Assembly (NCBI RefSeq): GCF_054482525.1 | Contig: NZ_CM137006.1 | Reading direction: 5' to 3' (one strand) | Length of the DNA: 64,000 nucleotides | Shown: positions 33,456 to 33,910 of the stretch, piece by piece | Layout of the letters: every line of letters begins with the position of its first letter | Numbering within the stretch: position 1 is the first letter of the stretch | Notes under the pieces: model-generated | What the model was told of the DNA's origin: nothing | What the model saw: the letters and a program-made list of their open reading frames with translations, nothing else | The model's database searches: none | Program-made: the position numbers and the translations under genes

Positions 33456-33910
33456 TCAGTTAACGTTTTTTCCGGAAACGGTAATTAGCAGTGGATGGTA
33501 GTCCTGGGGATCGAAAACCGATAACGGCAGACTGACACGATGGCCGTTACTTTCTTCAGTTGCTTTAATGATTTCGGTTGTGGCGACATTTTCCACGCAC
33601 TCCGTTTCCAGAAATGCGTCTGTGGTTCGCGTGGCATTACTGTCACCAAAAGCTTCCGTTTCCATTTTTCTGGTCACCAGCGTCTGACCATATTTGTCTT
33701 TGAGTTGCAGAGTGATGGTGAGGGGCCAAATCCTTCACCGTTTCCGCCATTATCCAGCCGGAACTGGTAAGCACAAATATTTCCCGGGAGCCATATCGTA
33801 TCTGTATTGCGTATACCGATGTAACGTTGATCCTGTGCCCGGAGTGGGGCAGACCACGTTAACCCCAGAATAACGCCAGTAATAATGCAGGTTTTGAACA
33901 GGTGAATCAT
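33456..33910 (-). pseudogene. Probable frameshifted gene for a small secreted protein (two adjacent ORFs in different frames)
   Basis: ORF 33674-33910 starts with a signal peptide MIHLFKTCIITGVILGLTWSAPLRA and abuts ORF 33456-33677 in another frame. Confidence 0.3.

Follow-up and report, generated by a model that had tools for sequence, protein, structure and literature searches.

A missing cytosine very probably makes a recent irmA pseudogene on a tRNA-Ser genomic island of Escherichia coli

We analysed a stretch of 64,000 nucleotides (nt) from contig NZ_CM137006.1 of NCBI RefSeq assembly GCF_054482525.1, hereafter called the window, and examined a broken gene of the IrmA family on its minus strand. 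The list of open reading frames (ORFs) showed that positions 33456-33910 hold one 455-nt gene divided over two ORFs in different frames. A preliminary description, made from the letters of the DNA alone, had already delimited the region, and its coordinates were exact for the two minus-strand ORFs. Sequence comparison shows that these ORFs are the halves of irmA, which closes the Ag43 (flu)-yeeR-irmA cluster of a genomic island at tRNA-Ser. The gene and its parts are as follows.

33456..33910, minus strand: irmA pseudogene of the IrmA family, 455 nt (intact alleles have 456 nt and encode 151 amino acids); the coordinates equal those of the 'frameshifted' coding sequence assigned to identical loci by the Prokaryotic Genome Annotation Pipeline (PGAP) of NCBI
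33674..33910, minus strand: ORF1, 78 amino acids from an ATG start; IrmA residues 1-63, 15 out-of-frame residues (SPSLCNSKTNMVRRW) and TGA
33456..33677, minus strand: ORF2, 73 amino acids from a GTG (or 69 amino acids from the ATG at 33665); IrmA residues 79-151, without a signal peptide
33722..33725, minus strand: lesion, a C4 run (GGGG on the plus strand) that is C5 in intact alleles; 1-nt deletion after the Pro63 codon, with run lengths taken from 14 loci
33836..33910, minus strand: predicted signal peptide, residues 1-25 (MIHLFK / TCIITGVILGLTW / SAPLRA, then QDQ), placed by hydropathy with a presumed exact cleavage site

The protein obtained by repairing the frame scored 129.9 bits against the Pfam model IrmA (PF18673), whose curated threshold is 25 bits. 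ORF1 alone matched model positions 1-33 (43.7 bits, E = 2.8e-11) and ORF2 alone matched positions 53-108 (58.6 bits, E = 6.5e-16), and the two ORFs are not a chance pair, because each matches its own consecutive part of the model. None of the NCBIfam models matched the repaired protein, ORF1 or ORF2, although PGAP names the locus 'IrmA family protein'; it took Pfam to assign the family. Crystallised IrmA (PDB 5EK5), the chain of which begins at residue 24 of the repaired protein, aligned with residues 24-151 (E = 1.9e-82), and the only differences in the alignment as printed were the first aligned residue, I/G32S and G58D. By megablast, the locus was found in 2,196 of 5,426 complete E. coli genomes, where it is annotated as "IrmA family protein", and a 611-nt stretch was 100% identical in six genomes. 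The coding sequence at the equivalent coordinates of the genome AH65 is flagged "frameshifted", and identical loci appear in RefSeq as 'IrmA family protein, frameshifted' through the NCBI pipeline.

Using intact IrmA as the query of a tblastn search, we found residues 1-63 in frame -1 (33910-33722) and residues 63-151 in frame -3 (33725-33459), each at 100% identity; the two segments meet and overlap at the C run. Strain elppa5 has an intact allele (456 nt, 151 amino acids), from which the window differs by a single change in the alignment, GGCCCCCTC -> GGCCCCTC, that is, C5 -> C4 at gene positions 186-190, with zero further differences over 3,061 nt. The frame is lost at codon 63/64, and the single intact ORF of about 151 residues that marks the IrmA family is absent here; the locus is accordingly classed as a pseudogene within the family and not as a working member. 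The N-terminus of ORF1, MIHLFKTCIITGVILGLTWSAPLRAQDQ, is by inspection a typical signal sequence, with Lys6, a hydrophobic core at residues 7-19 and LRA/Q(DQ) as the putative cleavage site, and its hydropathy maximum falls at residues 4-15. Both the start codon and the Shine-Dalgarno sequence of irmA are intact. No second copy of irmA was detected in the 64-kb window with blastn or tblastn. At 33674-33677, the sequence GTGA forms the stop of ORF1 overlapping the GTG of ORF2, which is the geometry of translational coupling and is probably accidental.

These results uphold most of what the preliminary description had proposed, namely a signal-peptide-bearing ORF split across two frames by pseudogenisation. 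The split is borne out by ORF1, ORF2 and the two tblastn segments, and the pseudogenisation by the single missing C and by the 'frameshifted' flag that NCBI gives to identical loci. When intact homologues were compared, as the description had suggested, the two ORFs joined as one 151-amino-acid IrmA, which is the opposite of two unrelated ORFs. The proposed junction near 33.67-33.72 kb was nearly right, except that the lesion (33722-33725) lies at its edge.

IrmA is the product of c1275/c3665 of uropathogenic E. coli (UPEC) CFT073, and its structure is PDB 5EK5 (Moriel et al. 2016; PMC4807369). It is a small protein found in culture supernatants with a predicted signal sequence, and it is an interleukin-receptor mimic, the intact form of which binds the interleukins IL-2, IL-4 and IL-10; it is also strongly immunogenic in urosepsis patients (PMC4807369). 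The gene irmA follows agn43 (flu) and yeeR; CFT073 and EC958 transcribe the three genes together, and OxyR acts as a repressor of irmA (PMC4807369). Enteroaggregative E. coli (EAEC) 042 has a mapped promoter for irmA alone between yeeR and irmA (PMC9431211).

Replication slippage is the most likely event to have removed one C from the C5 homopolymer. As the start codon and the ribosome-binding site are intact, translation would then yield a 78-residue precursor, in which the signal peptide is followed by 38 native residues and by 15 residues read out of frame. This precursor would lack more than 60% of the fibronectin-III-like domain, one of the two disulfide cysteines and the C-terminal domain-swap strand. 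The downstream ORF of 69-73 amino acids, even if translated, would have no signal peptide and would be cytoplasmic. The published disulfide of IrmA is Cys21-Cys80, and the swapped C-terminal strand comprises residues 110-128 (PMC4807369). Cys46 (in ORF1) and Cys105 (in ORF2) are 59 residues apart, the same spacing as in the published pair, and the swapped C-terminal strand of the domain-swapped dimer falls in ORF2. Because the disulfide cysteines are divided between the two ORFs and the swapped strand lies in an ORF without a signal peptide, the production of functional IrmA from this locus is, as judged from the sequence, very unlikely.

We consider it very probable that the locus is a real irmA pseudogene, generated by a 1-nt deletion in C5 with loss of IrmA function, and that it is an inherited and recent allele present in a minority of E. 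coli lineages. Some points weigh against this conclusion: for this genome taken alone, an assembly error at the homopolymer may formally account for the lesion, elppa5 has an intact allele that differs in nothing else, and ribosomal or polymerase slippage on the C run may restore the frame at a low level. To weigh the reality of the deletion, we compared the irmA C run with runs of the same length in the neighbouring genes. We counted the records of the complete-genome set that contain the respective 60-63-mer without mismatch; the 35 and 3 C4 records are lower bounds, since they cover the two flanking haplotypes listed and not rarer ones.

irmA C run, flanking haplotype of the window (GGT, 'NGEG'): native C5, 231; C4, 35; 13% broken
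irmA C run, major haplotype (GAT, 'NDEG'): native C5, about 1,920; C4, 3; 0.16% broken
DUF932 C5 control (32642-32646): native, 2,267; -1 allele, 5; 0.22% broken
yeeR G5 control (35041-35045): native, 1,780; -1 allele, 0; 0% broken

The -1 change was at least 60-fold rarer in the neighbouring C5/G5 runs than in the irmA C run on the haplotype of the window. Thirty-five complete genomes, which come from many different laboratories and hosts, contain the exact C4 61-mer. Enterotoxigenic E. coli (ETEC) O6:H16 and animal-associated strains are among them, and all of those checked are annotated as frameshifted; in most of the listed carrier genomes, the broken irmA is the sole copy. The exact 78-residue product of ORF1, for which the out-of-frame tail is diagnostic, was found on 815 public contigs (NCBI, JGI/IMG, ENA and Logan), and the 69-residue product of ORF2 on at least 1,000 contigs. 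A generic homopolymer miscall as the main cause was rejected, as the control tracts in DUF932 and yeeR are far more rarely broken and the allele is shared by so many genomes.

The C4 allele was present on four sub-haplotypes, each with at least two independent assemblies: A (the window and AH65), B (504838 and MS20658), C (2013C-4991, CE0007a and 25-07338) and D (TW10598, the ETEC O6:H16 haplotype). Intact alleles are 0-5 single-nucleotide polymorphisms (SNPs) away from sub-haplotypes A-C, and site 33872 and the indel occur in each of their four possible combinations (four-gamete violation). C4 was also found on the GAT family (BEN2908 and B-2207), as was a C6 allele (ETEC1746), which is likewise flagged as frameshifted; the exact C6 allele on the window's own haplotype was sought among the complete genomes and was not found. 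Because C4 occurs on several haplotypes and C6 once, the tract must have mutated more than once, and on the sequences compared the C run is a minor mutational hotspot. An intrinsic hypermutability of the tract was unsupported, the frequency of C4 in the major family (3 of about 1,920 records) being similar to that of the DUF932 control. Since the GAT background thus equals the control tract, the best explanation for most of the C4 alleles on the GGT family is that one or a few old events spread through descent and local recombination, and not that the tract is an unusually mutable switch.

A stronger reading of the same data is that the irmA C5 run is a recurrent, possibly reversible loss hotspot that repeatedly silences an immunogenic, secreted vaccine-candidate antigen in particular E. 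coli lineages. We regard this as rather unlikely; if true, it would point to selection against IrmA outside extraintestinal infection, or to a low-rate genetic switch on top of the phase variation of Ag43.

We consider it highly unlikely that the strain truly has C5 and an intact irmA, with the homopolymer miscalled in the assembly. The lesion does lie in a homopolymer, elppa5 shares the identical 3-kb haplotype with C5, and two of the C4 assemblies (504838 and 2013C-4991) also have a -1 change in a C6 run of yeeR, suggesting imperfect polishing there. However, C5 is a short run, C4 is carried by 35 complete genomes on four sub-haplotypes, and its product by 815 contigs of four repositories, among them Logan assemblies of public sequencing runs; the control runs carry a -1 change at 0.2% and 0% against 13% here, and the window is otherwise free of indels over 12.5 kb in comparison with AH65.

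An on/off switch by slipped-strand mispairing, with C4 and C6 as the off states and C5 as the on state, would add a genetic layer to the Dam/OxyR phase variation of the co-transcribed Ag43. The existence of both -1 (C4) and +1 (C6, ETEC1746) alleles, the presence of C4 in one allele family on at least four sub-haplotypes and its further occurrence in the other major family (BEN2908 and B-2207), the intact alleles only 0-5 SNPs from broken ones, the four combinations of site 33872 and the indel, and the strong immunogenicity of IrmA in patients (PMC4807369) are consistent with such a switch. However, C4 in the major family amounts to only 3 of about 1,920 records (0.16%), like the DUF932 control (0.22%), and no variation was seen within clonal sets: C4 is present in each of four records of about 5,403,850 bp. 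Moreover, known slippage switches have tracts of about 7-8 bases or more, and five bases are well under that length. A switch of this kind seems scarcely probable.

Recoding, in which either tRNA-Pro slips by -1 on C-CCC, with GGC CCC U re-read as CCC CUC, or the transcript is shifted by slippage, and some full-length IrmA results, is a negligible possibility. A -1 shift at the C4 run would yield exactly the wild-type amino-acid sequence, as read from the DNA, and an AAGGA Shine-Dalgarno-like motif lies just upstream of the C run, but there is no sign that such a shift is used. A canonical X XXY YYZ slippery heptamer is absent, and a stimulatory structure downstream was not identified, though no search aimed at one was made. 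Intact C5 predominates overwhelmingly, with about 2,150 of about 2,190 records, which shows that the broken form is derived and not a conserved recoding design.

The features of the surrounding module are as follows.

27453..27540, plus strand: tRNA-Ser(GGA), island boundary
32226..33044, minus strand: DUF932 gene, intact
33144..33377, minus strand: DUF905 gene, 77 amino acids, intact; the true downstream neighbour of irmA
33393..33431, minus strand: terminator-like hairpin (12-bp stem; hairpin 33431-33403) and T run TTTTTATTTAT, 25 nt past the irmA stop; fold -28.8 kcal/mol, z = -4.1
33911..33985, minus strand: spacer between yeeR and irmA; its Shine-Dalgarno sequence, GAGAGG at 33919-33924, is intact and precedes the ATG by 8 nt; counterpart of the promoter-bearing region in 042
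33986..36508, minus strand: yeeR-like gene, intact; 840-amino-acid ORF, 838 amino acids annotated in AH65
36623..39544, minus strand: Ag43/Cah autotransporter gene (flu), intact, first of the flu-yeeR-irmA cluster; 973-amino-acid ORF span beginning upstream of the annotated start, 948 amino acids for the AH65 coding sequence

The gene order Ag43-yeeR-irmA-DUF905-DUF932 agrees with that of annotated genomes and with the operon as published (PMC4807369). Beyond DUF932 toward tRNA-Ser, there are an antirestriction gene, JAB/RadC, DUF987, a hypothetical gene, a YeeU/CbtA toxin-antitoxin pair, DUF5983, DUF957 and DUF4942. The window aligned with AH65 over 12,545 nt with 24 mismatches and 0 indels, and in AH65 14 of the 15 module genes are intact, irmA alone being flagged. 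Because the broken allele is the intact elppa5 allele minus one C over 3 kb, with no secondary damage, and the rest of the operon and module is intact, the lesion is recent and isolated. The preliminary description had placed the gene between DUF932 and yeeR-like genes in a decaying island module. The yeeR-like gene does adjoin irmA, but the DUF905 gene (33144-33377) intervenes before DUF932, and the notion of a decaying module was not upheld, with the other 14 module genes intact in AH65, no indel over 12.5 kb and a broken allele free of secondary damage.

Several further observations were made on the island. In a C6 run of yeeR (34338-34343), one base is missing in 504838 and 2013C-4991, where yeeR is flagged as frameshifted; either the run is a further hotspot of homopolymer indels, or these two assemblies were imperfectly polished. 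An Rfam scan of 27-41 kb gave no RNA family overlapping the irmA locus; a match to the IS102 RNA (RF00124; 73.4 bits, gathering threshold 46) was found at 39488-39724 on the minus strand, over the upstream end of the Ag43 ORF span and just beyond it. In EE72d and 2017C-4173W12, an ISEc22 (IS66-like) transposase stands in place of DUF905/DUF932, about 120 nt downstream of an intact irmA, and is another route of module rearrangement. No genome of the complete-genome set matched the window at 100%, the best matches being 99.9% identical and ending at the tRNA. The genomes sharing the island at 99.6-99.9% (AH65, AH62, elppa5 and others) cease to match at base 27446, just outside tRNA-Ser(GGA), and other genomes match the window from 27000 on; the same island thus seems to adjoin different chromosomal flanks, possibly at two identical tRNA-Ser(GGA) genes. 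In genomes matching 27000-51999, type I restriction-modification genes (M, S and R subunits) lie under the match, and a type I restriction-modification system is presumably present at 40-52 kb of the window, on the same island.

The accessory gene irmA is characterised, and its frameshift here is an ordinary homopolymer event, already flagged by standard annotation; being routine, it has little consequence for basic biology. Only the recurrence of indels at the C run of a vaccine-candidate antigen is mildly new. IrmA has been proposed as an antigen for a UPEC vaccine, and this null allele is carried by about 1.6% of the irmA-positive complete genomes (13% within this allele family). Because the null allele is mostly the sole copy in the listed carriers, antigen surveys based on gene detection alone would overestimate expression. 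In addition, irmA fragments are sometimes annotated as separate proteins: the identical 69-residue fragment is called 'malate transporter' in ETEC B2C and other records, a label that is an annotation error spread through public databases.

Compared with IrmA of CFT073 (5EK5), the gene of the window shares the signal sequence, the cluster position after agn43 (flu)/yeeR on a tRNA-associated island and, in its intact form, the length of 151 amino acids. In contrast, its frame is broken after Pro63, so that, as far as the sequence allows one to judge, the fibronectin-III-like fold, the disulfide and the swapped strand could not form; moreover, crystallised IrmA belongs to the 'NDEG' (GAT) family, whereas the allele of the window belongs to the minority 'NGEG' (GGT) family.

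The locus also resembles the disrupted flu-yeeR-irmA clusters of UPEC, EAEC and K-12 (PMC4807369, PMC9431211), in which one component is knocked out in a subset of strains. In the published cases the cluster is disrupted by insertion sequence (IS) insertions and deletions, for the most part between flu and yeeR, or one copy is silenced through changes in its promoter, and frameshift alleles of irmA are not mentioned in these two papers ('frameshift' and 'pseudogene', 0 occurrences each; PMC4807369, PMC9431211). Unlike in those clusters, flu, yeeR and the intergenic signals are intact in the window, and only the coding frame of irmA is affected.

Homopolymer contingency loci, such as those of surface genes in Neisseria and Haemophilus, undergo phase variation by slipped-strand mispairing. 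The irmA frameshift is similar in that it lies in a G/C homopolymer within the 5' part of a gene whose exported product is immunogenic and that natural -1 and +1 alleles exist. It differs from them in that the irmA tract is only 5 nt long, about 98% of the copies are in frame, and the background rates are those of the control tracts.
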